Assembly (NCBI GenBank): GCA_965248925.1
Contig: CBDFLE010000006.1
Location: forward strand, 224,001-288,000
Direction: 5' to 3'
DNA from: Candidatus Multivoradales bacterium
Lineage (GTDB): Bacteria > Acidobacteriota > Thermoanaerobaculia > Multivoradales > J023
Length of the DNA: 64,000 nucleotides
In this document: positions 24,082 through 40,361 of the stretch, in pieces
Numbering within the stretch: the first letter of the stretch is position 1
How the letters are laid out: every line of letters starts with the position of its first letter
Program-made: the position numbers and the translations under genes
Notes under the pieces: model-generated
What the model saw: the letters and a program-made list of their open reading frames with translations, nothing else
Told to the model about the DNA's origin: nothing
Databases searched by the model: none

Positions 24082-24809
24082 CAGGCGTCCTCCGCCGCCG
24101 TCGCGGCGGCCATGGCCTCTGCCAATGAGAAAAGGCCTTCGTAGAGCGCCTTGCCGACAATCGCCCCGGTCACTCCGGCAGTGGTCGCCGCGGCCCGTAA
24201 ATCATCCAGGCTGGCGATGCCGCCGGACACCAGAGCCGGCAAGCCAGTGAGTTCGGCGACCCGGGTGGTAAGGGGCAGATTGGGACCTTCCAGCATGCCG
24301 TCGCAGTCGATATCGGTCACCAAGACCGCTGGGCAGGGCAGCCCCTGCAAGCGCTGGCAGAGTTCCTCCAGACTAACTCCAGCGGCCTCGCGCCAACCGG
24401 CCACACGGGGCTCGCCAGCGGCGGTCTCCACCGCTGGCACCAGCTGACCGGGATGGGCCGTGGCCAGCTGGCGAAAGAGGTCGAAATCGCGGGCCACCAT
24501 CGAACCCAGCACCACCCGTTCACAACCCGCCGCCAGGGCTCGTTCGACCGCCGGCTGATCCTTCAAACCGCCACCGAGTTCGATCCGTGGCTGGCCGCGG
24601 GAAACCAGCTCCTCGATCAACGCGAGCTGCTGCCGCTCACCGAAAGCGGCATCGAGGTCGATCACGTGCACCAGCTCGACACCTTCAGCGGCGTACTCGG
24701 ACAGCACCCACGAGGGATCGAGGCCATAGAGGGTCGTGTGGCGGTCATCACCATGCTCCAGACGCACCACCTGGCCGTGGCGCAGGTCGATTGCCGGAAT
24801 CAGCTGCAC
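24081..24809 (-). CDS. hisA: ProFAR isomerase
   Basis: [44 protein letters not shown]. Confidence 0.95.
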
Positions 24810-25453
24810 CGAGCCTCCTCCCCAGGGTTGGCCAATTCTAAGAAGTTGGCCAACAGCCGCAGGCCCACCGCGCCGCTTTTCTCAGGATGAAACTGGGTGC
24901 CCAGCACTCGGCCACGAGCGGCAATGGCGGCGAAAGCGCTGCCGTGCTCGGTGCGCGCCAAGCAAAGCTCAGCGGGTACTTCGAAGGCCGCGAAACTGTG
25001 GACGAAGTAGACGTAGCTTCCTTCCTCCAGGCCGGCCATCAGTGGATGATCGGCAATCCCCAGCAAGCGATTCCAACCAATATGTGGCAGCGGCACGCCA
25101 GCCGGTAGCTGGCGCACCGTGCCGGGCAGCAAATCGAGGCCATCGGTGCGGCCGAATTCCTCGCCGGCGGTAAACAGCAGTTGATAGCCAACGCAGATGC
25201 CGAGCAGCCAGGCGCCCGCGGCAACCGCCTCCCGCAACGCCAGTTCGAGAGGGCCGCGCAGCGCCTCGCGGGGCGGCTTGAAGGCACCAACTCCGGGCAG
25301 GATCAAGCAGCGGGCAGCGCCGACGACCGCCGGCTCGGCTGAGATCCGCGGATCACTGCCGAGGTGCCGCAGCGCTCGCGCCACATTGCCCAGGTTGCCA
25401 ACCCCGGCATCGATCACCACCACTTGCGGGCGGTCTGTTGCCGACCGGTTCAT
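24800..25453 (-). CDS. hisH: Imidazole glycerol phosphate synthase glutamine amidotransferase subunit
   Basis: GNL, LPGVGAF, GICVGYQ, PHIGWN, YFVHSF, QFHPEKS. Confidence 0.97.
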   Translation of the reverse strand: MNRSATDRPQVVVIDAGVGNLGNVARALRHLGSDPRISAEPAVVGAARCLILPGVGAFKPPREALRGPLELALREAVAAGAWLLGICVGYQLLFTAGEEFGRTDGLDLLPGTVRQLPAGVPLPHIGWNRLLGIADHPLMAGLEEGSYVYFVHSFAAFEVPAELCLARTEHGSAFAAIAARGRVLGTQFHPEKSGAVGLRLLANFLELANPGEEARCS

Positions 25454-26091
25454 TCGCTCAGCGTCCCCTTGGTCGAAGGGACCTCAGCGGCCGTCACTTC
25501 CCCGCCAGCGGTGTTCACCCTCAAGGCCACCGCCTGGCGCAAGGCCAGGGCCACTGCCTTGAACGCCGCCTCAGCGGCATGGTGCGCATTGCGCGCGGTC
25601 AGCACATCGAGATGCAGGGTAAAGCGCCCACGGTCGGCGAAAGCGTGAAAGAAATCGGCGATCAGGGTGAGTGGAAATTCGCCGGTCACCCAGCTATGTT
25701 CGATCTCCGCCGGCACCTGATAGGCGAAAAAACCACGGCCGGAAAGATCCACCACCGCCCGTGCCAAAGCCTCGTCGAGGGGGGCGTAGGCATGGGCAAA
25801 ACGCACCACGCCCCGGCGCTCGCCGAGGGCTTGACGCAGAGCATCTCCGAGAGCGATACCCACATCCTCGACGGTGTGGTGCAGATCGACGTGGACATCC
25901 CCCGCGGCAGAAATATCCAACCCCAACCCACCGTGAGTGGCCAGAGCGTCGAGCATGTGGCCGAAAAAGCCGTTGGGCACTTGCAGCGACTTCTGTTCAG
26001 GGTGGTCGAGATCGAGGGTCAGTTGCACCGAAGTCTCGCCGGTGCGGCGATCGACCGAGGCACGGCGCGGATCGGCTGCTGCGTTGCTCAT
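25450..26091 (-). CDS. hisB: Imidazoleglycerol-phosphate dehydratase
   Basis: R.T.ET, HML, HHTVED, PLDEAL, NAHHAAEAAFKA, PSTKG. Confidence 0.97.
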   Translation of the reverse strand: MSNAAADPRRASVDRRTGETSVQLTLDLDHPEQKSLQVPNGFFGHMLDALATHGGLGLDISAAGDVHVDLHHTVEDVGIALGDALRQALGERRGVVRFAHAYAPLDEALARAVVDLSGRGFFAYQVPAEIEHSWVTGEFPLTLIADFFHAFADRGRFTLHLDVLTARNAHHAAEAAFKAVALALRQAVALRVNTAGGEVTAAEVPSTKGTLSE

Positions 26092-27182
26092 GACGGATCC
26101 TCCGAAGTCGCGGCAAGAATCTCCACCAGCGCAGCACGGGTATCGCGCAACGCCCGGCCATGGCCGACCGAGATTCGCCAGCAGTCACTCAAGCCCGGAT
26201 AGCCGCTGACATCGCGCACCCGAATGCCGCGACCTTCCAAGCCGGCGAGGGTCGCGGCCGCGCGCCGATCGCGGACCAACAAGAAATTAGCCTGGGACGG
26301 GAACACCTCCAGCCCCTGCTCGCTGAGCATTTCCACCCACTGCCGACGCCGGCCGAGGATCACCCGCACTCGCCGCTCGACAGCATCCTTGGCGGCTAGC
26401 GCTACCTCACCGGCCAAAGCGCTCGCTCGACCGACGTTGTAGGGCAGCTTGACCTTGATCAGCTCACTGACCAGGCGCGGATCCGCCAGCAGGTAGCCCA
26501 ACCGCTGCCCGCCCAAGGACCAGGCCTTGGAAAAAGTGCGAAAGATCACCAGGTGGGGATAGAGATCGAGCAGCGGGCGATAGTCGTGACGACAAAATTC
26601 AGCGTAGGCATTGTCGAGCAGTAGCGGCGCTTCCAACCGCTCGAGCAATGCCGCGATCCGGGCCGGCTCGGCGGCGTCGCCAGTCGGATTGTTGGGGCTG
26701 CACAAGATCACCGGCCGGCGAGGGTCGCGCTCGATCTCGGCCGCCAGCTCAGCCAGCGGCAGCCGCAGATCGGCCGCTGGGCCGACGAAGCGCGGCGTGG
26801 CGGCGGCGCGCAGCACGAACATGCGGTAGAGACTGAAGCTGGGCAGCGTCGCCAACACCTCTCCACCGGGCCTGGCCAGCGCCTCCAGCGCCACCCCGAG
26901 CAGCTCGTTCGAACCGTTGCCAACCAAGATACCGGCCGCCGGCCAATCGTTGTGGCGACCGAGAGCAACGCGCAGATCGTCGGCATGAAAATCCGGATAG
27001 TCGGCCCAGGCGGTGGCCAACCAACGCGCCGCGATCCGCCGTTTGATCCGCCCCGGCAGCTCCCAGGGCACTTCGTTCTGGTCCAGCTTGTGACGGCAGG
27101 GGGACAGATCGAGGTGGTATTCCTTCAGCTGGCGCAGTTCGTCGCGCACCAAGATAGCCGGGTCGAGTCGCGCACTGGCCAC
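26088..27182 (-). CDS. hisC: Histidinol-phosphate aminotransferase
   Basis: KLDQNE, GNGSNE, CSPNNPTG, DNAY.EF, RTFSKAW..G.RLGY. Confidence 0.95.
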   Translation of the reverse strand: MASARLDPAILVRDELRQLKEYHLDLSPCRHKLDQNEVPWELPGRIKRRIAARWLATAWADYPDFHADDLRVALGRHNDWPAAGILVGNGSNELLGVALEALARPGGEVLATLPSFSLYRMFVLRAAATPRFVGPAADLRLPLAELAAEIERDPRRPVILCSPNNPTGDAAEPARIAALLERLEAPLLLDNAYAEFCRHDYRPLLDLYPHLVIFRTFSKAWSLGGQRLGYLLADPRLVSELIKVKLPYNVGRASALAGEVALAAKDAVERRVRVILGRRRQWVEMLSEQGLEVFPSQANFLLVRDRRAAATLAGLEGRGIRVRDVSGYPGLSDCWRISVGHGRALRDTRAALVEILAATSEDPS

Positions 27183-27184
27183 CC

Positions 27185-28504
27185 TCAGTCCTCCTCGGGC
27201 GCCACTCGCAGGCGCGCTGAGCGGGCGTGCGCCGGCAGCCCTTCAGCGTCGGCCAGCACCGCGGCGGCCTCGGCGGCGGCGGCGGCGGCGGTGGCCGTGA
27301 AGTGAATTTGGTGACCACGACGAACGAAGTCCTCCACCCCGAGGGCCGAGGCGAAACGCGCCGAACCCGCGGTGGGCAAGACATGGCTTGGGCCGGCGAG
27401 ATAGTCGCCAAAAACTTCCGGCGTCGTCGCCCCGACAAATACCGCCCCAGCCGCCACCACTCGCTCAGCAAGAGTCTCGGCCGCCGCTCCCACCAACTGT
27501 AGATGCTCGGGGGCCAAGCGCTCCACCAGAGCCTGTGCTGCTGCCATGTTGGCCACCACGAACGCGCGCCCGCCCGCCGCCAAGGCAGCGCGGGCAGTCT
27601 TGCGGGTCGGTAGGTCACGCAGCTGGCGCCGCAGCTGGCGATCGACCTGCGAAGCAAAGCGGCGCTGCTCGGTGATCAACACCGCCACCGCCTGCGGATC
27701 GTGCTCGGCCTGGGCCAGCAAGTCGGCGGCGACCCAAGCTGGATCGGCCCCCTGGCTGGCGACGATCACCACCTCGCTAGGACCTGCGAGGCCATCGATC
27801 GCCACGGTTGTCGACACCAGGTGTTTGGCGGCGGTCACCCAGGCATTGCCCGGTCCGACAATCTTGTCCACCCGCTGAATGGTCTCGGTGCCGTAAGCCA
27901 GGGCGGCCACCGCCTGCGCTCCACCCATCCCCCAAACCTCGGTGATGCCCAGCCGACCCAGGGCCCAGCGCAGCGCCGGGTTGGCGGCCAGGGCTTGGGG
28001 CGGGGTCGCCACGACGATCTCCTGCACCCCGGCGAGCCGCGCCGGAATGGCGGTCATCGCCACCGTCGACGGGTAGGCGGCGCGCCCACCCGGCACATAG
28101 AGGCCGACCCGGCGCAGCGGCAGGCGGCGCTCGATCAGCTCGACACCGTCGACTTCTAATTCGAATCCGGGGTGAACTTGTTGCTGGTGATAGCTCTCGA
28201 TCGCCGCCATGGCGCGCTCGAAAGCGGCGACGAAACCGGTCGGCAGAGCGCTATCTTCCCCCTCCCCACCACTCCCGACCGCGGGCACGAAGCGCAGCTC
28301 CTCAACCTGTTTGACACTGACGCCGTCGTACTTCCGCAGCGCTTTCAACAGAGCTTTATCGCCCCTTCGGCGCACCCTGTCCAGCAACCGAGCGGTGCGC
28401 TTGAGCACCACCGGGTCCAGCAGCCGGTCGGCGCGACGGACCAGGGCTTCGATCGCCGCTTGACCGCGCTTCGAAGTCGCCATGCGAATCTGTAGCTCAG
28501 CCAT
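27185..28504 (-). CDS. hisD: Histidinol dehydrogenase
   Basis: GLYVPGG.A.YPST, GGAQAVAALAYGT, KIVGPGN, AGPSE, DLLAQAEHD, APEHL, GPSHVLPT. Confidence 0.97.
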   Translation of the reverse strand: MAELQIRMATSKRGQAAIEALVRRADRLLDPVVLKRTARLLDRVRRRGDKALLKALRKYDGVSVKQVEELRFVPAVGSGGEGEDSALPTGFVAAFERAMAAIESYHQQQVHPGFELEVDGVELIERRLPLRRVGLYVPGGRAAYPSTVAMTAIPARLAGVQEIVVATPPQALAANPALRWALGRLGITEVWGMGGAQAVAALAYGTETIQRVDKIVGPGNAWVTAAKHLVSTTVAIDGLAGPSEVVIVASQGADPAWVAADLLAQAEHDPQAVAVLITEQRRFASQVDRQLRRQLRDLPTRKTARAALAAGGRAFVVANMAAAQALVERLAPEHLQLVGAAAETLAERVVAAGAVFVGATTPEVFGDYLAGPSHVLPTAGSARFASALGVEDFVRRGHQIHFTATAAAAAAEAAAVLADAEGLPAHARSARLRVAPEED

Positions 28505-29150
28505 CTTCCACCTCCCACTGCAGCTCGACCAGGCCGGCTGCTTCGAGCCGATCGAGCCAGCCATTGAGCACCTGACGATGCCTCTGATAGGCCGCCCGAC
28601 CGACCACCAAACAAGGCTGCACCCGACGGGCCACTTCGAGTTCCACCAGACCGTTCTCACGCAGCGTGCCGCCGGTCTGGACGATGTCAAGAGCCACTTC
28701 CGACAGATCCAAAATCGGCCCTAACTCGACCGAGCCGTAGAGCTTGAAAACCTCCGCCCCCCAAGGCTTGGAGCGCAGCCAGCGGCGGGCGGTGCGGGGG
28801 TATTTGCTGGCGAGCCGCAATTGCTGACCGGGCCGCGGCAAAGTGCCCGGACGGCCGATCAGTGACAGCCGACTGCCGCCCTCGGTGAGCCGCGCCGGCA
28901 CCAGCAGATCGCCGCCACCCACCTCCTCCAAGACATCACTGCCGACAATGCCGCAGTCGGCGATGCCGTGGCCAACATAGAGGGGCAGGTCCCAGTCCTT
29001 GAGCAACAGAACCTCGACCCCATCGCCGGGCAACCGCTGCTGCAACTTGCGCCCACTGGTGTCAAGCCCGGCGAAAGTCAGGCCGGCGGCGCGCAGCGCT
29101 TCCAGCGCCGGTCGCTGATTGCGCCCCTTGGGCAGCCCCCAGCGAATCAC
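28497..29150 (-). CDS. hisG: ATP phosphoribosyltransferase, short form
   Basis: GLPKGR, D.P.YV..G.AD.GIVG.DVL.E, ASKYP, KLYGSVELGP, DIVQTG.TLRENGL. GTG start overlaps the hisZ stop. Confidence 0.95.
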   Translation of the reverse strand: MIRWGLPKGRNQRPALEALRAAGLTFAGLDTSGRKLQQRLPGDGVEVLLLKDWDLPLYVGHGIADCGIVGSDVLEEVGGGDLLVPARLTEGGSRLSLIGRPGTLPRPGQQLRLASKYPRTARRWLRSKPWGAEVFKLYGSVELGPILDLSEVALDIVQTGGTLRENGLVELEVARRVQPCLVVGRAAYQRHRQVLNGWLDRLEAAGLVELQWEVEDG

Positions 29151-30139
29151 CGCCCTTCCTCCTCTGCTCCGGACGGAGCCAACCGGCCCAGACTGAGAGA
29201 GAAGCCCGCGGCGGTGACCTCGGCCCCGAGGGTGTAGAATAGGCGATCGTAGCGCCCGCCAGCGCCTATTTCTTGCGACCCCTCGGCAGCATAGGCACGA
29301 AAGATCAGGCCATCGTAGTAGGCCCCCGGCCCGAGTTCGGGACGTAACCTCGGCTCGAGGATCTGGTCGGCGAACTCGGCCAAATCGACCCGCAGCTGCA
29401 ACCTCGGATGGCTCTCTCCAAGCCGCTCCACCAAGACCATTAGCCGCCGCAGCTGCGCTACTGCGATCTCGCCAAGGCACTCGACGTCGGCCGGCACACC
29501 CTCCCGAACCACTTGCAACAACCCTGGCGACATGTCACGCACCGCGGCGCGATCACGGCGTAAGACTGCCGCCGCCAGCCGTCCCACTTGCTCCACTCCA
29601 GACTCTGCCAGCGGCTGATCGAGGGCACCGGCAAAGCCCAGCACCACCAACGGCCGCCGTTGCTCATTGCTGAGCGGTGGGCAAGCCGCTTCTAGCAGGG
29701 CCAAGAAACTCTCAAGCGCAAGCTCTTCGCCAGCCGTACCCTCCATGCCAAGAACTTCGGCTCCCACCTGGTAGAGTTCCCGCTGGCGACCGGCGCGTTC
29801 CTCTTGGTAGCGCAGCACATCGCCGCGGTAGTAGAGCTTCAGCGGCAACTCCAAGAACTGCAACCGTGGCGCCAGCAAGCGGGCTAACATGGGGGTGAAA
29901 TCTCCCCGCAGCGCCAACACCTCCCCGTCGCGGTCCACCAAGCGGTAGAGCTGCTCACGACTAGCCGGACTGAGCAAGGCCTCGTAAGGCGCCAGGTAGT
30001 CCACCACCGGCAGCACAACCTCAGAAAAACCCTCGGCTTCGAGCCTTGCCACCAAACGCTGCTCCAAGGCACGACGACGGCGCGCACTACCCATCATCAA
30101 AGCTTCGACACCGGTCGGCAGAGAAGCAGAGATTCTCAT
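29147..30139 (-). CDS. hisZ: ATP phosphoribosyltransferase regulatory subunit
   Basis: LP.G, LR.DFT...AR, YY.G.V.R, RE..QVGAE, YY.G..F, GGRYD. Sits next to short-form hisG. Confidence 0.92.
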   Translation of the reverse strand: MRISASLPTGVEALMMGSARRRRALEQRLVARLEAEGFSEVVLPVVDYLAPYEALLSPASREQLYRLVDRDGEVLALRGDFTPMLARLLAPRLQFLELPLKLYYRGDVLRYQEERAGRQRELYQVGAEVLGMEGTAGEELALESFLALLEAACPPLSNEQRRPLVVLGFAGALDQPLAESGVEQVGRLAAAVLRRDRAAVRDMSPGLLQVVREGVPADVECLGEIAVAQLRRLMVLVERLGESHPRLQLRVDLAEFADQILEPRLRPELGPGAYYDGLIFRAYAAEGSQEIGAGGRYDRLFYTLGAEVTAAGFSLSLGRLAPSGAEEEGR

Positions 30140-31719
30140 TGCGCCTGCCCCTCCGGCAGGCGCAGCAAGCGGCGCGCAAGATCTTCGTCGAGGCTGTAGC
30201 GGGTCATCAGCAAGAATTGCGGTAGGGCCTGGGCGAACAGCGCCTCACGCCCCGGGACCACGGCTATACCTCGTGCTTCGAGGGCCTCGACCAAGGCAGT
30301 CTCATGTCGACCGTAGACCAAATCCACCACCGTTGCGTCGCTGGCCACGGCCGCTACGTCGAAGGGCAAAGGATCGTTCTCGCCATGGCCCAGTCCGGTC
30401 GCATGGATGATGATGTCGAAACCTGAAGGGTCGAAGGCGTCGAGGGCGACAAAGGGCAAAGCAAGTTCGGTCGAGGCTTTCTTGCCCCGCTCCTCACCGC
30501 GGTTGACCAGTGTGACTCGAGCCCCTTCGAGCTGAAGACCGTAGGCCGCGGCTCGGCCAGCGCCACCACAGCCGACAATCGCCGCCCGGACGCCTCGGAA
30601 AGCCACCCCCCAGCGCCGCAACGGCTCGACAACTCCCTCCGGATCCGTGGTCTCGGCCTCCCACACTTCGCCACTCTTGACCAAGGTGTTGGCGGCGCAG
30701 ATGTGCTGTGCCCGCGGACTCGAGGCACCAGAGACGGCCAGCGCAACTTCCTTGTAAGGGGCGGTCACCGACAGGCCACGCAGCGGAAACCCGAGATCTT
30801 CCAGGCTGCCCGACTCGACAACTTCGATCCAAAAATCACCGAACGACTCGATATGGAACGGCAGATAAAGATAAGGCAAGCCGAGTTCCCGATAAGCACC
30901 GTTGTGCAGCCGCGGCGACAACGAATGCAGCACCGGCCGGCCGGCAATGCCGTAAAGCCCTTCGATCGGCGGCAACTCGGGGAGGCCATAGTCGCGGCGC
31001 AAACGCGCTACCGACAGCTGACCCGGCGCGGCCGGGGTTTCGCTAGCGGATCCGTAGACCCAAGGGCTACCCAGCCGCGGCGCTAGCAGGCGGGTCCAGG
31101 TGGCGATCTCACCCACGCCAAAAGAAATCACATCCTCACGCCCCAGCGAACGCAGCAAGGCCAGCGCGCGGATGCCGTCGCCCGACCCGGCAGCGATCGG
31201 GATCACCTTGTAGTAGCGCGCCTCGGTCGAGGTCATGTGCTCGAAACGCTGACGCAACGCCGTCAAGTGAATCGCCGGACCGTGCCACGAGATCAACCGC
31301 TTGCTCGCCGGCACCTGCACTAGGAGTTCGGGAAAAAGATCCCGCTCAGCTTCCAGATCCACCAGGTCGTAGCCCTCGGCCGCTGCACTCAAGCGCTGCT
31401 GGCGCCGTGCCTTGCCCGCCTCGGATTTGCCACCCTCCGCCCGGCTGCGCAAAGTGTAGAGCAAGCGCCCAGAGAAATGCTGGCGCAGAAACTCGACCTC
31501 GAGATCGCCCACCAAGTCGCCTCGTACTTCGAGCACGTCAGCGAGCTGTGACAGCTCTTTCAGGTCGGCACCGTCACTGGCCGGTGGATGGGTCAGCGTA
31601 GCAACCAGCTCGGTGCGCTGTTGTGGGTCGCGAACGCTCCGACGGTCGTTTCTAGAGCCGTCGTTGCTGACGCTGTCGTCGTTGGATGTGCGATCAGACA
31701 CCAAAAAACCTCTTTCCAT
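30136..31719 (-). CDS. aroDE: Bifunctional type I 3-dehydroquinate dehydratase / shikimate dehydrogenase (AroD-AroE fusion)
   Basis: N-terminal E.R.D, TLRSRAEGG, ISWH, APGQ (DHQase I); C-terminal HSLSPRLHN, SVTAPYKE, ANTL, GCGGAGRAAA, DLVY. Exact start uncertain. Confidence 0.88.
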   Translation of the reverse strand: MERGFLVSDRTSNDDSVSNDGSRNDRRSVRDPQQRTELVATLTHPPASDGADLKELSQLADVLEVRGDLVGDLEVEFLRQHFSGRLLYTLRSRAEGGKSEAGKARRQQRLSAAAEGYDLVDLEAERDLFPELLVQVPASKRLISWHGPAIHLTALRQRFEHMTSTEARYYKVIPIAAGSGDGIRALALLRSLGREDVISFGVGEIATWTRLLAPRLGSPWVYGSASETPAAPGQLSVARLRRDYGLPELPPIEGLYGIAGRPVLHSLSPRLHNGAYRELGLPYLYLPFHIESFGDFWIEVVESGSLEDLGFPLRGLSVTAPYKEVALAVSGASSPRAQHICAANTLVKSGEVWEAETTDPEGVVEPLRRWGVAFRGVRAAIVGCGGAGRAAAYGLQLEGARVTLVNRGEERGKKASTELALPFVALDAFDPSGFDIIIHATGLGHGENDPLPFDVAAVASDATVVDLVYGRHETALVEALEARGIAVVPGREALFAQALPQFLLMTRYSLDEDLARRLLRLPEGQAQ

Positions 31720-31950: not shown

Positions 31951-32751
31951 TCATGCCGGCACCAAAAAGGGCCGGAGCAACAACAGATGCAGAGGCTCGG
32001 CCGCCAGCACTGGCGCCAATCGATAGTGCTTTAGCTCGAAAGCTCGGCCCACTTCGCCACTCAGTTCCACCGGTCGCCATTCACGCTCCACGAAATCGGC
32101 CGAAACTATTTCCTGCCCCAGCCAGGCGGCATCGAAATACTCGAACAGGCTGGTCTTAAGCAGTTCCGAGGCGCGCTTGCCGATCAACCTAGAGAAAGCC
32201 CGATTGACAAATAGCAGCTGCCCGAGCCGATCACTAACCACCACCGCCAACGGATCACCCGGCTGCCGCGAGCGGCCCCGAACCTCGGACCAGGCTTGAG
32301 AAAATTCGAATTCAGCACCCCCGTCATGCTGCAGGGTGCGGGCGATCAACGCGGCAGTCACGTCGGTGTGAATGCCAACAAAGTGAGTCAGGCGGCCGGC
32401 CTCGTCCAGTACCGGACTGAGTTTGAGTTCGTCCAAGAAAACCGTGTGATCTTTTCTGTAGTGGCGCAGCAGAGCGCGGCAGCTGACCCCCTCGCCCAGC
32501 GCCCGACGAAGTTGGGCGAGCTGCCTAGAGTCCGTGCCCGAACCTTGTAGAAAAAGACAGTCTCGCCCCAGAACCTCCGCCGCAGCGTAGCCGGTGAGGC
32601 GTTCGAATCCTGGGTTGACATAGATCAGCGACATCTCCGCGGACCTGGCATCAGCCACGGTGACCCCATTACTGACTTCTTTCAACAAGGGTTCTAGCAA
32701 GCCAGAGAGGTTGGACCAAGTCACGGCAATATCTCCGTATAGCTGCCTCAA
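31951..32751 (-). CDS. Stand-alone PAS-PAS protein with degenerate LOV-like first domain
   Basis: LIYVNPGFERLTGYAAAEVLGRDCLFLQG...YRKD...FVGIHTDVT; second PAS LLFVNRAFSRLIG. No output domain seen. Confidence 0.8.
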   Translation of the reverse strand: MRQLYGDIAVTWSNLSGLLEPLLKEVSNGVTVADARSAEMSLIYVNPGFERLTGYAAAEVLGRDCLFLQGSGTDSRQLAQLRRALGEGVSCRALLRHYRKDHTVFLDELKLSPVLDEAGRLTHFVGIHTDVTAALIARTLQHDGGAEFEFSQAWSEVRGRSRQPGDPLAVVVSDRLGQLLFVNRAFSRLIGKRASELLKTSLFEYFDAAWLGQEIVSADFVEREWRPVELSGEVGRAFELKHYRLAPVLAAEPLHLLLLRPFLVPA

Positions 32752-33854
32752 CTACCGGCCATGCCACCAGACGATCGCAGCTGCCGGGCGCTCCTATGAG
32801 CCCTAAAATGCCGCGAACCGGGAGCGAGGAGAGCCTGCTGGCTAGCCGCCGAAGTACCGCGGCCCGGTGCAGAACGCATCAGGCTCAAGGTCTCGTAGAG
32901 ATCGATCAAACGACCCAGAATCAGTGACTTATTGCCGCCATTGCGCAACATCCAATCGAGGTTCTCATCCAGCCCGAAGAGTTCGTCGAGAAGCTCCACC
33001 GAGGTGTAGCTGAGCGGCCCGTAGGGGTCGCCGTCGCCAAGCTGAGAGAATGCCTGGCGAATAACCACCAGATCGTGTTCGGCGAGACCGCGCTCACCAT
33101 TGCTGGAGCGCAAAAGTTCGAGAAACAGCAGCAGCTCGGACAATACCTGCTGCCCTCCTGCTGGCTGCCGCTGACCCCGCAACCACTGGCTCAGGTGATG
33201 TTGGAGCTGCCGGGCTCGTAACCGCTCTTCCGCCTTTAGATGGCAAAAGTCGTCCTGTCCCATCAGCCAGGCCAGCACGTTGCCCACTCGGCGCAAGCGC
33301 CCCTGAAGGTCGGCTCCAGCGGGTCGGCGAGACGGTAAGCGGGCCAGCAGCCGTCCGGTCAGCCGGCGAGCGGCGAACGCTCGCTGGTGCGAATCGCCGC
33401 GAGCCGCCCGCGACTCGACCCCCAACAAATGGCTCAGCCAGCCTTCGAGAAACGATAAGCGAGCGAGCATCCTGCTGCGCACCTGCTCCAAGGCGATCAA
33501 CACCCGGTCGGGGTCAGCCGTTGGGTCATTCAACTGCCCGAGCCGCAGCCCACAAACCCGCAATTCGGCTAACAGAACCAAGCATAGGTCGGACAGGTCA
33601 GCCAGCTGCCGAGGAGTGGCGCCAACTCCCGGACCCGTCGCCGCGTCCAAGGTACGAGTTGACAGCTCATGCAGCAGGCGACAGCAGCGCACCACCACCT
33701 CGATCCTCGCCGGCATCGGCGCAACAGCCTCGCCAGAGGCTTCCGACCCACTCTCCAGCAGCGCACAGCCGCGGACGACATCGATCATTTCAAGCACCTG
33801 GCGCAACCCATCCTGCAACTCAAAAGGTCGCCGGCTCGGCTCTTCGCCGCTCAT
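32748..33854 (-). CDS. Hypothetical helical protein (paralog of 34184..35233)
   Basis: 368-aa ORF sharing blocks with the upstream paralog; its stop overlaps the start of the PAS gene. Confidence 0.75.
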   Translation of the reverse strand: MSGEEPSRRPFELQDGLRQVLEMIDVVRGCALLESGSEASGEAVAPMPARIEVVVRCCRLLHELSTRTLDAATGPGVGATPRQLADLSDLCLVLLAELRVCGLRLGQLNDPTADPDRVLIALEQVRSRMLARLSFLEGWLSHLLGVESRAARGDSHQRAFAARRLTGRLLARLPSRRPAGADLQGRLRRVGNVLAWLMGQDDFCHLKAEERLRARQLQHHLSQWLRGQRQPAGGQQVLSELLLFLELLRSSNGERGLAEHDLVVIRQAFSQLGDGDPYGPLSYTSVELLDELFGLDENLDWMLRNGGNKSLILGRLIDLYETLSLMRSAPGRGTSAASQQALLAPGSRHFRAHRSARQLRSSGGMAGS

Positions 33855-34183: not shown

Positions 34184-35233
34184 CTAAACCAAACGCAGGT
34201 TTCTGGCCGGCAGGACCTTCGGCCGATCGGCTTCGGTATCAACCGCCAAGGAAGTCACCGACGCCATCGACTGCTCAATCTCGATCAACTTGGCGATCAC
34301 CAAAGTGCGGGCGGCCCCTTGGCGCAGCAAGTTATCCAACGTCTCGTCGAGGCCGAGCAGAGGGTCAAGAATCTCAGCCATCAGCTGCTCAGAGTCGGCC
34401 CCAGCCTCACCACTGCCAAGCTGTTGAATAGCCCGCTCCAAGACTTGCTGGTCGTGCTCGACCAGAGCTGGATGGCGAGCCATGCGCCGCAGCAACTCGC
34501 TGAACACCTGCAACTCATGCCAAATCTGCCGACCGGTGCGCTGATCACGGTCGCCGCGCAGCCAATTGAGGATCATCTCCCGCAACTGCCGGGTCATCAG
34601 CCGGTCCTCGGGACCCAGGCTAGAAAAAGTGGAGTGACCGAGCAGCCAAACCAAGACCGTCCCCGAGCGACACAAAGAAGACTCTAGATCGTTTTCGAAG
34701 TCACCCGAGTCCGGCAACCGAGATTTCAGCTTGGCGACCAGTCGTCGCGCGGCCAAGGAACGGCGGGCCACGTCGATGTGCTGGGTACGCGGCGTGGCTC
34801 CGGAGATCGCACTAAGTCGGACATCCAACGCCCAGAGACCATTGATGGTCTTGGCGCGTGCTCGCTCGAGGGCGATCAGTACCGCCTGGGGATCCAGCTT
34901 GCCCTCGCCAAGCCGACCGAGTCGACGACCGCAGGCCCTCAGATCTGAACGCAGGACAAAGCAAACATCCGTCAGATCCTCGAGTTTCCGTGGCGTCAGG
35001 CTAGCAACAAACGGGCCGGCCGAAGTAGGAGTCAGATGGCAGAGATCACTAATCGCCGCACAAGCCCTAGAGATCAGATCCACCAGCTCTCCGACCACCT
35101 CGCTTGCCTCGAAGGGTTGTCCCCGCTCATAGACCTGAAGCTGGAAGCTCCGCACCTCGACTATCAGGCTGTAGATCGAGTCCAGGACAGCCTCCAAATC
35201 GACTGCCGACGATTGAGGCTGCTCCTTAATCAT
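34184..35233 (-). CDS. Hypothetical helical protein (paralog of 32748..33854)
   Basis: 349-aa ORF; shared blocks DL.D.C.VL..LR.CG.RLG.L, DP..VLIALE, WLRG.R, EHD, GLDE.LD..LR.G. Confidence 0.75.
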   Translation of the reverse strand: MIKEQPQSSAVDLEAVLDSIYSLIVEVRSFQLQVYERGQPFEASEVVGELVDLISRACAAISDLCHLTPTSAGPFVASLTPRKLEDLTDVCFVLRSDLRACGRRLGRLGEGKLDPQAVLIALERARAKTINGLWALDVRLSAISGATPRTQHIDVARRSLAARRLVAKLKSRLPDSGDFENDLESSLCRSGTVLVWLLGHSTFSSLGPEDRLMTRQLREMILNWLRGDRDQRTGRQIWHELQVFSELLRRMARHPALVEHDQQVLERAIQQLGSGEAGADSEQLMAEILDPLLGLDETLDNLLRQGAARTLVIAKLIEIEQSMASVTSLAVDTEADRPKVLPARNLRLV

Positions 35234-35389
35234 CGCGCGCTCCGGCGACTACCCTTCCCGGCTCTCTCACCCAGCTGCTTGGATCGCTTAGACCACCCAT
35301 TCAGGCCCCCCCCCCCTTACGAGCCGTCCGTCCTGACAGCTCTATCGGCTTGGCCTCAAACCTTAGCCGGTGTGGCACGATCTTGCAGG

Positions 35390-36838
35390 TCAGTAATTCT
35401 GGTCTAAACGCCTCAGTAGCCGGCGCACCGTGTCGATCAACTCACCGCGCTGCACTTCCAACTGACCGGGACGCTCAGCCAGCCACTCCTGTCGATCTTC
35501 GATGTCAGCAGCGATATGCCGCCCTACATCCATATCCTTGAGCGTCACGATGCCCTTGGCATGCTCGTCCGAGCCCATCAGCAAGGCGATCGGAATCTCC
35601 AGCTGGTCGGCGTACTTGAGCTGCTTGCCGACATTACGACCGCCGCCGAGGTACAACTCGGCCGGGATGCCAGCGCGACGCAGCTCGAAAGTCATCGCCA
35701 GGTACTCATCGACCAATGAGGGATCCATGCGCGTCACCAACACTCGCGAAGTCGACTTGCGAGTCTGTACCTTGCCGAGATGCTCGAGCGCCGCCAACAG
35801 CCGATCGACCCCGATCGAGGCACCGGTGGCGGGCATCGGCTGCCCCGAGAAACGTTGCACCAAACCGTCGTAGCGGCCGCCACTGAACACCGAGCCAAAC
35901 TGCGGCGCATCGGTCAACACCGCTTCCCAGATCGGTCCGGTGTAATAAGCCAGCCCGCGAGCGATCGACAAGTCGAGCCCGACCTTGTCGTCGCCATAGC
36001 CCAGCGCATATAGATGGCGCGAGATCGTCGCCACGATGCCGATTTCCTGCTCGGCGCCGTCGACCCCGGAAAAAGTCTCCCTCAGCTGTTCGACAACCTC
36101 ATCCCGCGAGCCCTCGACCTGCAAGAACTGGCCGATCTTGTCAACTTGTCCAGCGCCCAATCCAAGGCCGCGAATGCGGTCCCCCGAGCGGTCCGTATAG
36201 CCCTCGGTAAGCTCCAGCCGAACCTTCTCCAACCCCACCTTGTCGAACTTGTCCAGAACGCGGAACACGTCGCTGGCGCGGTCGCTGGAGATCTCTGCGA
36301 AACGCAGCAAGACATTGAGCAAGCCGCGGCTCGAATAGCGCACCCGATAAGCCTCGATACCGAGGGCCTCCAAGGTGTCGCACATACCGGCCAGGATTTC
36401 GGTATCGGCGATCTCCGAAGGCGCTCCCACCGAATCGAGATCGAATTGGATGAATTCGCGAAAGCGCCCCTTGTCGGGCTTATCGCCGCGCCACACTTCG
36501 GCCACTTGATAGCGGCGGAAAGGCCGCGGCAAATCGCGGTGCTGAGAGACAAACCGGGCCAGCGGTACGGTGAGGTCAAAGCGCAGCCCCAGCTCCTCCT
36601 GCTCCCGGTTGCTGACCGTGAAGATCGACTTGGCGGCCTCCTCCCCCGAATCCGCGCCCAGCAGCACATCGAGGTACTCCACCGCCGGGGTCGAGATCGG
36701 CAGAAAGCCATAGCCCTCATAGACCCCCCGAATAGTGTCGATCATCCACTGCCGCGCCAACTGCTGCTGCGGCATCAAATCGCGCAAACCCCGCGACGTT
36801 CTAGGTTTGACTCGCTTCGGCTTGACTCGCTTTGCCAT
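35390..36838 (-). CDS. hisS: Histidine--tRNA ligase
   Basis: G.RD, LRFDLTVPLAR, GRFREFIQFD.D, ARGLAYYTG, SGGRYDGL, G.SIGVDRL, KQLKYAD. Confidence 0.97.
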   Translation of the reverse strand: MAKRVKPKRVKPRTSRGLRDLMPQQQLARQWMIDTIRGVYEGYGFLPISTPAVEYLDVLLGADSGEEAAKSIFTVSNREQEELGLRFDLTVPLARFVSQHRDLPRPFRRYQVAEVWRGDKPDKGRFREFIQFDLDSVGAPSEIADTEILAGMCDTLEALGIEAYRVRYSSRGLLNVLLRFAEISSDRASDVFRVLDKFDKVGLEKVRLELTEGYTDRSGDRIRGLGLGAGQVDKIGQFLQVEGSRDEVVEQLRETFSGVDGAEQEIGIVATISRHLYALGYGDDKVGLDLSIARGLAYYTGPIWEAVLTDAPQFGSVFSGGRYDGLVQRFSGQPMPATGASIGVDRLLAALEHLGKVQTRKSTSRVLVTRMDPSLVDEYLAMTFELRRAGIPAELYLGGGRNVGKQLKYADQLEIPIALLMGSDEHAKGIVTLKDMDVGRHIAADIEDRQEWLAERPGQLEVQRGELIDTVRRLLRRLDQNY

Positions 36839-36976
36839 AAGATCTTCCTCGAAATGCCGGCAATCCATCGGCGGCCAGCCGTGCCGGTCGAGATTGCCGG
36901 AAAAAAGCGCTACGCACGGCAAATTCTAGCAGCCACCGGCCGTGCTGCCCGAAGAGGTCTGCGGTATTGGGGGGGA

Positions 36977-37053
36977 TGGTACTGAAGCCCGGAATTGAAC
37001 CGGGGACCTCTTGATCCACAATCAAGCGCTCTAACCAACTGAGCTACTTCAGC
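36977..37053 (-). tRNA. tRNA-His(GUG), copy 1 (no encoded G-1; U72, A73)
   Basis: Cloverleaf GCTGAAG-TA-GCTC-AGTTGGTTA-GAGC-G-CTTGA-TTGTGGA-TCAAG-AGGTC-CCCGG-TTCAATT-CCGGG-CTTCAGT-A-CCA, with encoded CCA. Confidence 0.97.
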
Positions 37054-37064
37054 GCCGGGGGGCG

Positions 37065-37094
37065 ATGGTAGTCGCTGCGTGCCACCGTTGTAAA
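37065..37094 (-). promoter_or_regulatory. Sigma70-type promoter of tRNA-His copy 1 (probably also hisS)
   Basis: TTTACA-N18-TACCAT on the minus strand; conserved upstream of both tRNA copies while the spacer diverges. Confidence 0.65.
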
Positions 37095-37139
37095 GAGGGC
37101 CGCCGCAAGGGCTGGCGCCGTGCTGCACACATTCAAACC

Positions 37140-37763
37140 TCAGCGAGTCGCTTGAAAATGCATGGCATCGCGGCCCCAGGCCAGCGCTCCGCTCTTCCAC
37201 CCCGCTGACTGGAAGATATCGATCACCTCGATCGGCATGGTGGCCGGCGCCGGCCAGGGAACCCGGAATCCGTTCTTCTTCGGATCGAGGTCGATCGCCA
37301 TACCCCAGGCATGGGTCGACCATGCGGAATCGCTACCGCGCTGTTTGCGGAAAGCGTAGACCCCGCCGTAGAGGTGCATCCTGGCGGCCTCGAGGGAGGC
37401 TCGATCGCCATAGTGATCGCGAATCGCTTCCAGGGCGCCAGTGAGCGAGTCGGCGACCCGGCGGTGGCATCGGGTTCGGGTCACCGTGGTGCCGTGGTCC
37501 CAAGCCAGCAGCATTGGGTACGGCAGGTTGATCATCACCAGATTGTGTTCGCCGGGTTCGCCATAGAACGCTTGCAGAGAGCGTTCGTCGGGCGCTGGCC
37601 AAGGCGACAGCTCAGCGGCTCCCGAGAACCCCGTCTGGGCTCGCCAGGCGGCCTCAGTTTCCGCGCCGGCCCAGCCGTCAATGGCGACGCTCTGCCCTTC
37701 CTTTTGCAGCCAGCGTTGGTTGAGTTCGGCAAAAGACTCGTTGGCTTGGTGCTTCTCAATCAT
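37140..37763 (-). CDS. M15-family peptidoglycan peptidase with degenerate PG-binding N-terminus (endolysin-like)
   Basis: GG.YAFR..RG...WSTHAWG.AIDLD and D.MHFQ zinc motifs; N-terminal Q..L...IDG..G..T..A; AGGAGG RBS upstream of the ATG at 37763. Confidence 0.85.
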   Translation of the reverse strand: MIEKHQANESFAELNQRWLQKEGQSVAIDGWAGAETEAAWRAQTGFSGAAELSPWPAPDERSLQAFYGEPGEHNLVMINLPYPMLLAWDHGTTVTRTRCHRRVADSLTGALEAIRDHYGDRASLEAARMHLYGGVYAFRKQRGSDSAWSTHAWGMAIDLDPKKNGFRVPWPAPATMPIEVIDIFQSAGWKSGALAWGRDAMHFQATR

Positions 37764-37818
37764 CGGCGCCCTCCTTGGCCCGGTCATCGAGTTAGGCTTC
37801 CTGGAGAAGGGGGGGGGA

Positions 37819-37895
37819 TGGTACTGAAGCCCGGAATTGAACCGGGGACCTCTTGATCCACAATCAAGCGCTCTAACCAACTGAGCTACTTCAGC
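37819..37895 (-). tRNA. tRNA-His(GUG), copy 2 (identical to copy 1)
   Basis: Same 77-nt sequence as 36977..37053. Confidence 0.97.
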
Positions 37896-37907
37896 GCCGG
37901 GTGGGCG

Positions 37908-37937
37908 ATGCTAGTCGCTGCATGCGGCGGTTGTAAA
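37908..37937 (-). promoter_or_regulatory. Sigma70-type promoter of tRNA-His copy 2
   Basis: TTTACA-N18-TAGCAT on the minus strand. Confidence 0.65.
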
Positions 37938-38056
37938 GGGTCTGAACCCTGAGCTGCGTCAGCGGTAGCAAATAGGACGAAGGATCGACCTGCTCCTGGA
38001 CTCCCCTCCCACGACAGCCGAACCAGCTGAACCGCCAACCAACCCCGGAGACCCCC

Positions 38057-38785
38057 ATGCAGCCGCAACTCCTCGACCGAGTGTCGATCCTGAGATCCGC
38101 CCATCAAGTAGCCAAGACCGCGCAGCGCAGACGACGGCTTGCCGCACATGCCTCAATCGCCGTCACCCTGCTGAGCTTCGCTTCCCTACCCCTCCAAGCC
38201 GCGGCTGGCGACCGCTGGATTGTCCGCGCGCACGGCCTCATCCTCAGCACTTCAGGAGATCCCGCAGTGGCACCGCGAGAGACCGCCGAGGGAATCGAGC
38301 AGATCAGCCACGAGGTAGGCAACGGTTCAGGCTTCGGGCTCAGCTTGGAATTTCTGATAAATGGCACCTACGGGGAGGAAATAGGCATCTACGACGGCGA
38401 CCTCGACAGCGACTTGAGCATCGACAACGGCTCGCAAATCCGCCTCGACAGTGCCGACACCGGTTGGGAGATATACACCCTGGGTTGCAACTACCACTTC
38501 ACGCCAAGCCCGCGAATCGGCGTCTCCTTGGGCGCCTTCGCCGCCATCACCTTCTTCGACGACACCTTCTTCTTCACCGGCGGCGGCAGCGAAAAGCTGA
38601 CCTTCGACGACGACTACGGCATCGGCCTGAAGGTCGGCCTCGACATCCCCCTCGGCGCCAACAGCGGCTGGCTGTTGACCGCCGAAGGGCGCTATCTATC
38701 GACCATTCTCGAGACCGAAGGCCTGACCCGAGACATCGAAATCAATCCCCTGATCCTCGCGGCAGGGGTGGGCTATCGCTTCTAG
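38057..38785 (+). CDS. OmpW-like outer membrane beta-barrel protein
   Basis: Signal peptide, AGDRWIVRA, NYHF, INPLILAAGVGYRF C-terminal barrel signature. Start may be further downstream. Confidence 0.75.
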   Translation: MQPQLLDRVSILRSAHQVAKTAQRRRRLAAHASIAVTLLSFASLPLQAAAGDRWIVRAHGLILSTSGDPAVAPRETAEGIEQISHEVGNGSGFGLSLEFLINGTYGEEIGIYDGDLDSDLSIDNGSQIRLDSADTGWEIYTLGCNYHFTPSPRIGVSLGAFAAITFFDDTFFFTGGGSEKLTFDDDYGIGLKVGLDIPLGANSGWLLTAEGRYLSTILETEGLTRDIEINPLILAAGVGYRF

Positions 38786-38906
38786 GCGGGGTGGGCGGGG
38801 CTCCGGGCTGGACAGCATCCTGGGCCACTTGATTAGTGCGATCTGAGCGCATATGATTTAGGTGCAAAGAGATGTGCTTGTCGCACACACCAAGAGGAAC
38901 AATGAG

Positions 38907-39128
38907 ATGCGAACCACTATCACCGTCGACGACGTCATCTTCGGCGACCTGATGAACCTCACCCAAGCGAAGTCGAGAAACGAAGCGATCAACACCGCGC
39001 TGGCCGAGTGGGTCCGCAGGCAGAAGATCCAGCGACTCAAGTCGCTGCGAGGAAAGCTCTCGATTGCCGACGATCTTGACGATCGTCGCCAGCTAGAGAT
39101 CGGAGAGGCCAGATCGCTTGGCCGCTGA
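38907..39128 (+). CDS. vapB: Type II antitoxin, VapB (RHH) family
   Basis: MRTTITVDD...K...IN.AL.E..R; overlaps a PIN toxin gene. Confidence 0.85.
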   Translation: MRTTITVDDVIFGDLMNLTQAKSRNEAINTALAEWVRRQKIQRLKSLRGKLSIADDLDDRRQLEIGEARSLGR

Positions 39129-39504
39129 TGTACTTGTCGACTCCTCGGCCTGGATTGAATATTTTCGTCAAAGCGATGGCCTCGTGGGCGACACCATCCT
39201 GCGTCTGCTCGACGCCGACAGGATCGTCCTTTGCGGCATTGTCGAGCTAGAACTGCTGCAGGGTGCGCTGCCCAAAGAACGCCGCATGCTGAAGGAGCTA
39301 CTCCAGGCACTGACCTACGTCGAATCCGAACGCCGAGATTTCGTTGCAGCGGGCGAGGGGTTGGCCCTACTGCGTCGCCGAGGAGTGACCATCCCGGCCA
39401 CCGACGGGCTGATTGCAACTCTCTGTCTACGCCACCGGTTGTCGCTGCTGGCCATTGACTCGCACTTCGACCACTACCCCGAATTGCTACGGCTAGCCAC
39501 TTGA
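39118..39504 (+). CDS. vapC: PIN-domain toxin, VapC family
   Basis: VLVDSSAWIEY, ELLQG, D.LIA, D.HFD acidic PIN residues. Confidence 0.9.
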   Translation: MAADVLVDSSAWIEYFRQSDGLVGDTILRLLDADRIVLCGIVELELLQGALPKERRMLKELLQALTYVESERRDFVAAGEGLALLRRRGVTIPATDGLIATLCLRHRLSLLAIDSHFDHYPELLRLAT

Positions 39505-39635: not shown

Positions 39636-39654
39636 ACACTTGGGAGACTGTCTC

Positions 39655-39936
39655 ATGACCACCGCCCAGATTCGCGCCCTCAGCACTCACCGTCGCCGCC
39701 TCAAAGAGCGCGGCTTGGCCCGAGTCGAAGTCCAGGCCCGCCGCGACGACGCCGACCTGCTGCGGGCGCTGGCCAGCCGGTTGCGCGACGATCCAGCCGA
39801 TGACCTACGCCACCGCTTGGCGGAGCTACTCTCCAGCCCCAACAAGCCAAGCTTGAAAGCTCTCCTCGCCGCCGCGCCACTCGCAGATCTCGACTTGGAG
39901 CGCCAACGTGATTTGCCTCGGGACATCGAGCTATGA
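39655..39936 (+). CDS. Putative antitoxin
   Basis: HRRRLKERGLARVEV...LKALLAAAPL.DLDLER.RD..RDIEL; ATGA overlap with the PIN toxin. Confidence 0.75.
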   Translation: MTTAQIRALSTHRRRLKERGLARVEVQARRDDADLLRALASRLRDDPADDLRHRLAELLSSPNKPSLKALLAAAPLADLDLERQRDLPRDIEL

Positions 39937-40361
39937 GCCAGACAGCTGGCTATCTTCTCGACACCAACATCATTTCGGAAATCGGCAAGGGTCAGCACTG
40001 CGACCAGCGAGTGGCAGGTTGGTTCGAGAGGCTCGACGACAGCGAACTTCACCTCAGCGTGCTGGTGATTGGCGAAGTTCGCAAAGGGATCGAGTCCCTA
40101 CGGCCGCGAGACGCCGCCCGCGCCGCGGGTATCGAAGCTTGGCTAGGCCAGATCGAGAGGGCCTTCGCCGGCCGCATTCTGCCGATCAACACCCTGGTGG
40201 CCGATCTCTGGGGCCGGCTCGCGGCACGCCGCACCCTGCCGGTCATCGATAGTCTGCTGGCCGCCACCGCCCTCGCCCACGGCCTAGTCTTGGCCACCCG
40301 CAATGTCGATGACCTGATCGACAGCGGCGCCCGGATGTTGAATCCCTTCGAGGAGAGGTGA
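39933..40361 (+). CDS. vapC: PIN-domain toxin, VapC family
   Basis: YLLDTNIISE, GEVRKGI, DSLLAATA..HGL..ATRN..D, NPF. Confidence 0.92.
   Translation: MSQTAGYLLDTNIISEIGKGQHCDQRVAGWFERLDDSELHLSVLVIGEVRKGIESLRPRDAARAAGIEAWLGQIERAFAGRILPINTLVADLWGRLAARRTLPVIDSLLAATALAHGLVLATRNVDDLIDSGARMLNPFEER
40327..40352 (+). repeat. 26-bp exact direct repeat, copy 1 (3' end of vapC)
   Basis: GCGCCCGGATGTTGAATCCCTTCGAG also occurs at 47885..47910. Confidence 0.9.

Follow-up and report, generated by a model that had tools for sequence, protein, structure and literature searches.

Few tRNA identity marks are as conserved as the guanosine at position −1 (G-1) of tRNA-His. In the literature consulted, its loss among bacteria is ascribed to one alphaproteobacterial clade alone. 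We analysed a window of 64,000 nt (C6:224001-288000) from a genome of the Acidobacteriota (G000; a 7.98-Mb assembly in 6 contigs, 96.9% complete), in which a gene for histidyl-tRNA synthetase (HisRS), hisS, lies directly downstream of a tRNA-His gene that does not encode this mark. The pair is the only histidine-charging system of the genome; although its type is unusual, that type is known, and the two genes do ordinary housekeeping. We consider it likely that the pair is G-1-independent, that it displaced the canonical pair of the host order by an old lateral transfer of a linked tRNA-hisS unit, and that it was inherited vertically afterwards.

In the Caulobacter system, the anticodon, U72, and A73 are the identity elements read by HisRS, G-1 brings no gain, and it matters how large the D-loop is (PMC3064791). 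The same paper (Yuan et al.) describes an insert in the anticodon-binding domain that is unique among class IIa enzymes and is a candidate for anticodon reading. In motif 2, a Gln reads G-1:C73, whereas the RRCH clade has a Gly at this position (PMC3937112; Amrine et al., 2014). According to Ardell and Andersson, as summarised in PMC3064791, only the enzyme was transferred in alphaproteobacteria, and the resident tRNA then adapted. Trypanosoma brucei and Acanthamoeba castellanii also have a G-1-independent HisRS; they lack Thg1 and G-1, and their atypical HisRS accepts the tRNA (PMC4338351, PMC3561963). The relevant portions of two reviews name the alpha-proteobacteria alone among bacteria for a G-1-less tRNA-His (PMC6471195, PMC9976931). 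Our full-text literature search, with subscription journals and supplements outside its scope, gave no report of a G-1-less tRNA-His or of this HisRS type in Acidobacteriota, Planctomycetota, Bacteroidota, or other non-alpha bacteria. The window pair is therefore of a known kind whose occurrence outside the alphaproteobacteria was not found in print, and the wider pattern is the more interesting lead. An earlier reading of this DNA from its sequence alone (the sequence-only reading) had pointed to an interest of the pair for genetic-code engineering. For the Caulobacter pair this idea has been published before (PMC3064791, PMC3875453), as has the orthogonal use of that pair (also PMC7590224); with the present pair, the natural G-1-independent HisRS/tRNA-His pairs to draw on are no longer limited to the few from alphaproteobacteria that code engineering has used.

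The tRNA-His and hisS genes of the window

The hisS gene is on the minus strand at 35390-36838, in an open reading frame (ORF) that extends to 36922, and encodes 482 aa. The ATG at 36838 is the preferred start because homologues align from residues 1-10 of the 482-aa form. The protein scores 360.5 bits against TIGR00442 (cut-off 286.75), which places it among the class IIa histidyl-tRNA synthetases, and contains the catalytic domain PF13393 (156.6 bits) and the HGTP anticodon-binding domain PF03129 (42.5 bits). HisZ, the regulatory subunit of ATP phosphoribosyltransferase, was considered as another identity and ruled out by the TIGR00443 score (188.8 bits, below the cut-off of 271.65) and the presence of PF03129.

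Two identical tRNA-His(GUG) genes, detected by both ARAGORN and Rfam, lie upstream on the same strand. Copy 1 (36977-37053, minus) ends 138 nt before the hisS ATG, in agreement with the roughly 140 bp on the same strand given by the sequence-only reading, and copy 2 is at 37819-37895 (minus). A sigma-70-like site (TTTACA-18-TACCAT; 37065-37094, minus) precedes copy 1 and possibly serves hisS too. Another (TTTACA-18-TAGCAT; 37908-37937, minus) precedes copy 2, so that two promoter-like sites were observed before the tRNA-His copies against 0.6 expected. No terminator-like site was seen in 35200-38200, and the stretch from copy 1 to hisS has no additional promoter-like site. Co-transcription of copy 1 and hisS is therefore plausible; of the shared promoter proposed earlier, the promoter-like site before copy 1 is present, and its service to both genes is just plausible. 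An Rfam search (E<=0.1) for a riboswitch or T-box leader between the tRNA and hisS returned just the two tRNAs.

The genome relies on this pair. A family search found one hisS above the TIGR00442 cut-off; second in rank is a hisZ-like gene (29147-30139), and the remaining hisS-family matches are weaker and well under the cut-off. Among the 48 tRNA genes of the genome, the two window copies are the only tRNA-His genes. Thg1 (PF04446) had no match in the 96.9%-complete genome, and the positive control, Methanosarcina, matched. With a single hisS, only two tRNA-His genes, and no Thg1, the assembly is therefore without the means to encode or add G-1 and without a second canonical pair.

Enzyme type and tRNA identity

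In both tRNA-His copies, position −1 is C and G1:U72 closes an acceptor stem of 7 bp; they further have A73, a GUG anticodon, G37, a 9-nt D-loop, and an encoded CCA. The templated G-1:C73 pair is present in neither. As read from the sequence, they carry the full set of Caulobacter identity elements, and the tRNA-His of a Sinorhizobium meliloti record is much the same (T at −1, G1:U72, A73, G37, 9-nt D-loop).

We call the HisRS clade of the window type A, the eukaryote- or archaeon-like HisRS of other bacteria type B, and the bacterial G-1-dependent HisRS canonical. The window enzyme was compared with 6 alphaproteobacterial, 5 other named, 23 type B, and 10 canonical genes (the last from the host phylum) and with relatives from public genomes; one named gene that was broken (L207) was dropped. 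In the IQ-TREE analysis (LG+C20 PMSF, 48 rows), the type A clade (support 100/99) and the alphaproteobacterial clade (100/100) are joined as sisters (99/99). The window HisRS is thus not inside the alphaproteobacterial clade. FastTree (90 rows) agrees, with the two clades as sisters, apart from type B and far from canonical HisRS. A tblastn search of PLSDB, which includes many chromids, gave HisRS of Rhodobacterales and Rhizobiales as the best named matches (40-44% identity over 95-97% of the query), followed by Bacteroidales (32-34%) and by Firmicutes, haloarchaea, and gammaproteobacteria (28-31%). Among solved structures, the best match is 3net (2.5e-67), then chains of cytoplasmic HisRS (~1e-60), and the HisRS of E. 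coli, Thermus, and Staphylococcus match at 1e-25 to 1e-27.

Two insertions are common to the type A and alphaproteobacterial rows only. By alignment, one of ~12 residues lies in the insertion domain (window residues ~214-226) and one of ~20 residues in the anticodon-binding domain (~441-462); both are missing from the type B, archaeal, Firmicutes, and canonical rows compared. The two peptide stretches quoted in the sequence-only reading as alphaproteobacterial features are present and are these insertions. Aligned with the six alphaproteobacterial HisRS, the insertion in the anticodon-binding domain fits the insert described by Yuan et al. (PMC3064791). In the motif-2 loop (~residues 107-133), the Gln is found in 10/10 canonical HisRS, in none of 56 type A HisRS, and in none of the six alphaproteobacterial ones. 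The position is taken by Asp (29), Gly (16), or Lys (10) in type A, with Asp122 in the window enzyme, and by Gly in all six alphaproteobacteria. By phylogeny, shared insertions, and the motif-2 change, the window HisRS is assigned to the alphaproteobacterial, G-1-independent kind, as the sequence-only reading had suggested. A canonical G-1-dependent HisRS of the host phylum was ruled out by an identity of 26-28%, a position on the far side of the tree, the loss of the motif-2 Gln, and the differing tRNA.

Three genomes of the window's own family hold a different HisRS (G241:C38:135509-136990, L226; G253:C30:51339-52784, L227; G268:C97:3833-5302, L228). These proteins share 43-49% identity with the window enzyme and 59-61% with HisRS of Rhodobacterales. 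A quick IQ-TREE run places them as sister to the six alphaproteobacterial rows (SH-aLRT 100 for the joint clade); they are the closest non-alpha relatives of alphaproteobacterial HisRS in this analysis. The tRNA-His of G253 has G1:U72 and A73 too.

The tRNA type follows the enzyme type. We collected 71 tRNA-His genes that accompany type A HisRS, from 69 sources, some of which are perhaps one genome reached twice. They have G1:U72 in 67 cases and G1:C72 in 4, with A73 in 66, G73 in 5, and C73 in none; position −1 is G in 34, T in 21, C in 11, and A in 5. In the phylum sample described below, all 20 genomes with other HisRS types whose tRNA-His was read have g-1/C73 (16 + 1 + 3; the unpublished G024 and G049, also g-1/C73, are left out of this count), and this holds for all eight type B genomes examined. 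Enzyme and tRNA types thus co-vary in every genome examined except one, G176, which has both pairs; the earlier claim that the atypical tRNA fits its enzyme holds. The covariance model (R1) gave U72/A73 tRNA-His more than 94 bits and many other tRNAs 77-90, and it was not used for the counts of canonical tRNA-His. For the three same-order genomes, a BLAST query with canonical tRNA-His returned other tRNAs only; their tRNA-His genes were recovered by a pattern search.

The window system thus resembles the alphaproteobacterial one in its tRNA (no G-1:C73; G1:U72, A73, G37, and 9-nt D-loop as in Sinorhizobium) and in its enzyme (sister clade, both insertions, loss of the motif-2 Gln), and no Thg1 was found. 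It differs in its acidobacterial host, its separate clade at 40-44% identity, the Asp in place of Gly in motif 2, and its gene order. The six alphaproteobacterial loci have no tRNA gene in their 1.5-kb flanks and the order hisS-hisZ-hisG where annotated, whereas the window tRNA is directly upstream of hisS. Canonical HisRS (E. coli, Thermus, and other families of the order) is likewise a class IIa enzyme with PF13393 and PF03129 and the same reaction. It differs in its low identity (~26-28%), its motif-2 Gln, the absence of the insertions, and, in the order, a g-1/C73 tRNA-His in a Pro-Arg-His-Arg cluster. Type B HisRS, known from many families of Acidobacteriota and from Parabacteroides, is the next-nearest tree group (35-43% identity) but has neither insertion, goes with g-1/C73 tRNA-His (8/8), and has no adjoining tRNA-His in 23 loci.

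The enzyme might instead be eukaryote-like and need a G-1 that is added by an unrecognised enzyme or kept by RNase P opposite A73. After 3net, its best structural matches are cytoplasmic HisRS chains (E 1e-60), well ahead of E. coli and Thermus (1e-25 to 1e-27), A73 is the eukaryotic discriminator (PMC3064791), and G stands at −1 in 34/71 related tRNA genes. However, both window copies have C at −1, no Thg1 domain was found in the genome, and the enzyme clusters with the alphaproteobacterial type, for which G-1 independence was found by experiment, shares the anticodon-domain insertion of that type, and has lost the motif-2 Gln. We regard this explanation as very unlikely. The G-1-independent systems of T. 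brucei and A. castellanii, in the sources cited above, are similar in that the organism has an atypical HisRS and neither Thg1 nor G-1. They are eukaryotic, and the T. brucei and Trypanosoma cruzi HisRS chains match the window enzyme at just E ~1e-37.

Probable displacement of the canonical pair and linkage of tRNA-His to hisS

The proteins nearest to the window HisRS (67-75% identity) come from metagenome-assembled genomes (MAGs) labelled Acidobacteriota, Thermoanaerobaculia, or Holophagales. In an evenly drawn sample of 150 genomes of the phylum, with HisRS classes set by identity to the window enzyme, type A (49-66%) occurs in 6 genomes, type B (35-43%) in many families, and canonical HisRS (26-28%) in most families. 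The three genomes sampled from the window's order fall in the canonical group, and so do three of the other four families in their taxonomic class; the fourth (G105) forms its own long branch. One genome (G022, 83% complete) gave no hisS match at E<=1e-10, yet has a U72/A73 tRNA-His near a contig end. In a sample of 121 genomes of the order, with this HisRS type called at E<=1e-40, type A-like HisRS was found in 55, at 65-74% identity to the window enzyme. By family, it is present in 15/15 genomes of the window's own family (f1), 6/6 of f62, 8/8 of f64, 14/15 of f66, 6/10 of f69, 3/8 of f63, 1/16 of f3, and 1/10 of f2, and it was not found in f67 (0/15), f68 (0/15), f65 (0/1), or f70 (0/1).

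The canonical tRNA-His has left its place in these genomes. In the three same-order genomes with canonical HisRS, it lies within the cluster Pro(TGG)-Arg(TCT)-His-Arg(CCG). A scar is left in the window's genome (DISPLACEMENT): its cluster (C6:2909968-2910311) is Pro-Arg-Arg, with 55 nt in place of His. Besides this genome, 54 in the order sample have this HisRS type, and all 31 whose cluster was read are Pro-Arg-Arg; the stretches fetched from G174 and G263 showed Pro-Arg only. All 17 genomes read that lack this HisRS type (14 + 3) have Pro-Arg-His-Arg with g-1/C73. Other classes of the phylum, too, have clusters of this kind that include His, and canonical HisRS rows group by kinship in the trees, indicating that the canonical pair is the older state and the His-less cluster a loss. 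The state differs between genomes (MAGs) even within the genera g156 (G257 vs G252) and g134 (G213 vs G183 and G193), where HisRS type, tRNA type, and cluster state switch together and the new tRNA adjoins hisS.

Two genomes of one genus show irregular states. G176 (a MAG of 850 contigs, 89% complete) holds one set made of a linked U72/A73 tRNA-His and type A hisS, and a second set made of a canonical g-1/C73 tRNA-His in Pro-Arg-His-Arg and a second HisRS over the TIGR00442 cut-off; the loci are C62:1363-2804, C195 (L309), and C158:4132-5448. Either the bin is mixed, or one cell carries two orthogonal histidine pairs. In G206 (C3:1639650-1641054; a 10-contig assembly), a type A hisS with an adjoining U72/A73 tRNA-His is broken by TGA stops, which is either an assembly error or a broken gene.

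We then consider the linkage of the two genes. We took the best 80 related loci from public genomes: in 50, a same-strand tRNA-His lies at most 300 nt upstream of hisS, and 3 more have a tRNA-His 0.7-2.3 kb upstream. The adjacency is therefore not due to chance. The linked loci are labelled Acidobacteriota, Planctomycetota, Bacteroidota, Nitrospirota, WOR-3, and Coatesbacteria, and unlinked members are also labelled Ignavibacteriota and Chlorobi; type A HisRS with U72/A73 tRNAs is found in MAGs labelled as seven phyla besides Acidobacteriota. A search of five unlinked genomes located a U72 tRNA-His elsewhere in every one, with A73 in four and G73 in one. In the phylum sample, a U72/A73 tRNA-His immediately precedes hisS at all six type A loci, and none of 23 type B loci has an adjoining tRNA-His.

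These results are best read as a displacement that took place long ago, in which a linked tRNA-hisS unit probably replaced the canonical pair. In the ancestral state of the order, a bacterial-type HisRS would have charged a g-1/C73 tRNA-His encoded within the Pro-Arg-His-Arg cluster. In an ancestor of several families this pair would have been displaced, most likely via lateral transfer of a linked tRNA-hisS unit, since such an enzyme would be useless without its tRNA and the two genes are adjacent in many lineages. The old hisS and tRNA-His would then have been lost, leaving the cluster as Pro-Arg-Arg, and the new pair would have been inherited vertically as the housekeeping system. In the present cell, copy 1 and hisS may share a transcript, as the gene arrangement suggests, from which RNase P and 3' processing would free the tRNA. 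RNase P presumably cuts it at +1 like any other tRNA because there is no templated G-1:C73 pair, and there would be no Thg1 to add a G post-transcriptionally. By analogy with Caulobacter HisRS, the enzyme would charge this ordinary tRNA with its 7-bp acceptor stem by reading the GUG anticodon, U72, and A73. Such an exchange offers a concrete and testable route by which a synthetase and its tRNA identity rule can be replaced jointly.

Alternatively, this HisRS type is ancestral in the acidobacterial lineage, the tRNA changed in place, as in the scheme of Ardell and Andersson for alphaproteobacteria given above, and the adjacency arose later for co-expression. The nearest kin without linkage and the lack of mobility genes beside the pair agree with this explanation, as do the acceptor stems, which vary much between lineages with G1:U72/A73 alone fixed. 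However, the His slot of the Pro-Arg-His-Arg cluster is empty in 31/31 genomes read rather than occupied by a modified tRNA. The new tRNA is at a different place, and the tRNA-hisS arrangement recurs across loci labelled as seven phyla. A change in place is thus unlikely; given how often the two genes are physically linked, a transfer of both together at some point is the best explanation.

The sequence-only reading took the synthetase to be of alphaproteobacterial type and proposed that it and the tRNA had moved together as a self-consistent module, a possible orthogonal pair. Joint transfer remains the probable course, with 50/80 public loci linked. The event is old, though, and five loci of the same family are unlinked. 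A recent module from an alphaproteobacterium, kept as an additional orthogonal pair next to a native system of the host, would agree with the adjoining tRNA and hisS behind a promoter-like site, with the insertions in common with alphaproteobacterial HisRS, and with the VapBC pairs and low-G+C stretch a few kb away. Yet the genome has no second hisS and no other tRNA-His, and homologues of 65-74% identity occur in 55/121 genomes of the order. The clade is sister to the alphaproteobacteria, not within them (40-44% identity), the G+C content is 0.61 against 0.62, and no mobility genes were seen. A recent module is therefore highly improbable, and both the extra orthogonal status and the alphaproteobacterial origin have to be given up. 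The checks that had been proposed gave a mixed outcome. The HisRS does not cluster with canonical enzymes of the host phylum, and one relative (G176), though not the window's genome, has a second HisRS. The synteny survey shows linkage in 50/80 public and 6/6 phylum-sample loci but in 0/9 of the nearest kin.

Several observations weigh against the displacement by a transferred linked unit, or against G-1 independence. A tRNA-His lies within 1.5 kb of hisS in none of the nine nearest kin loci (0/5 in the window's family f1, with three more loci in the sister family f62 and one in the sister family f64), so the window's linkage is not common to its nearest kin. The hisS flanks of these nine loci are non-syntenic and map to scattered places in the window's genome. 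Among the public loci, 27/80 have no tRNA in the fetched flank, although 3 of these flanks are shorter than 500 nt. Comparisons of empty sites in g134 (G213 vs G183, G193, and G238) and g156 (G257 vs G252 and G267) found flanks too diverged and scattered. The G+C content around the pair (0.61) is close to that of the contig (0.62), and no integrase, transposase, or other mobility gene was seen beside the pair. IMG/VR viral contigs gave 17 pattern matches with no relative among them, and PLSDB plasmids gave no relative above 45% identity. One MAG, G176, has both pair types. The recognition rules are carried over from Caulobacter HisRS, which is only ~40-44% identical, and the motif-2 residue is Asp, not the alphaproteobacterial Gly. 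The 34 of 71 relatives' tRNA genes with G at −1, opposite A73, may retain G-1.

Beyond this genome, with its sole histidine system and the scar still visible where its canonical tRNA was displaced, relatives of the locus in several further phyla carry the pair, in many cases with the tRNA and synthetase genes side by side. A broader proposal, which we put forward tentatively and with slightly less than even confidence, is that the G-1-less histidine system is a widespread, laterally spreading two-gene unit, with tRNA-His directly upstream of hisS, that has repeatedly displaced the canonical system in at least eight labelled phyla. It would then not be an alphaproteobacterial peculiarity that 'arose only once'; the alphaproteobacteria would be one branch, whose closest sister lineage in this analysis is in the window's own acidobacterial family. 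If this is true, physical linkage explains how tRNA identity can switch in one step.

Neighbouring genes

Copy 1 and copy 2 of the tRNA-His gene lie in a direct repeat made of promoter, tRNA, and C-run (36969-37095 and its partner 37811-37938, spacing 842-843 nt), with 99% identity in the tRNA part and 85% in the promoter part. The two copies frame a Peptidase_M15_4 ORF (37140-37787, minus; 215 aa from the ATG at 37787). This D-Ala-D-Ala carboxypeptidase-like ORF is single-copy in the genome and is absent from the 11 related loci checked.

Downstream of hisS are two ORFs without family matches, a PAS protein, an aroD/aroE fusion, and histidine biosynthesis genes. The first two ORFs, just 3' of hisS (34184-35233 and 32748-33854, minus; 349 and 368 aa), have no Pfam or NCBIfam match, and their translations look alike by eye, without alignment. 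The row at 24800-31719 (minus), 3.7-10 kb downstream of hisS, contains the aroD/aroE fusion, the hisZ-like gene, hisD, hisC, hisB, and hisH. The hisZ-like HisRS paralogue (29147-30139, minus), 5.2 kb downstream of hisS, heads the row of biosynthesis genes hisD, hisC, hisB, and hisH (24800-28690, minus), and hisD has an N-terminal extension of ~95 residues. The nearness of hisZ to hisS is reminiscent of the alphaproteobacterial hisS-hisZ-hisG order. We considered hisZ as part of the transferred unit and rejected it; a hisZ-like sequence is near hisS in only one of the related loci scanned (L055).

Upstream of the tRNA genes are an OmpW-like ORF and two VapB/PIN-type toxin-antitoxin pairs (38862-39504 and 39640-40361, plus), the latter just upstream of the tRNA genes together with a DUF1203 ORF. 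Farther on, the G+C content drops to 0.51-0.57 at 41-48 kb of the window, and few ORFs there match families. Elsewhere, the window's genome encodes a tRNA-SeC(TCA) at G000:C6:1930728-1930827.

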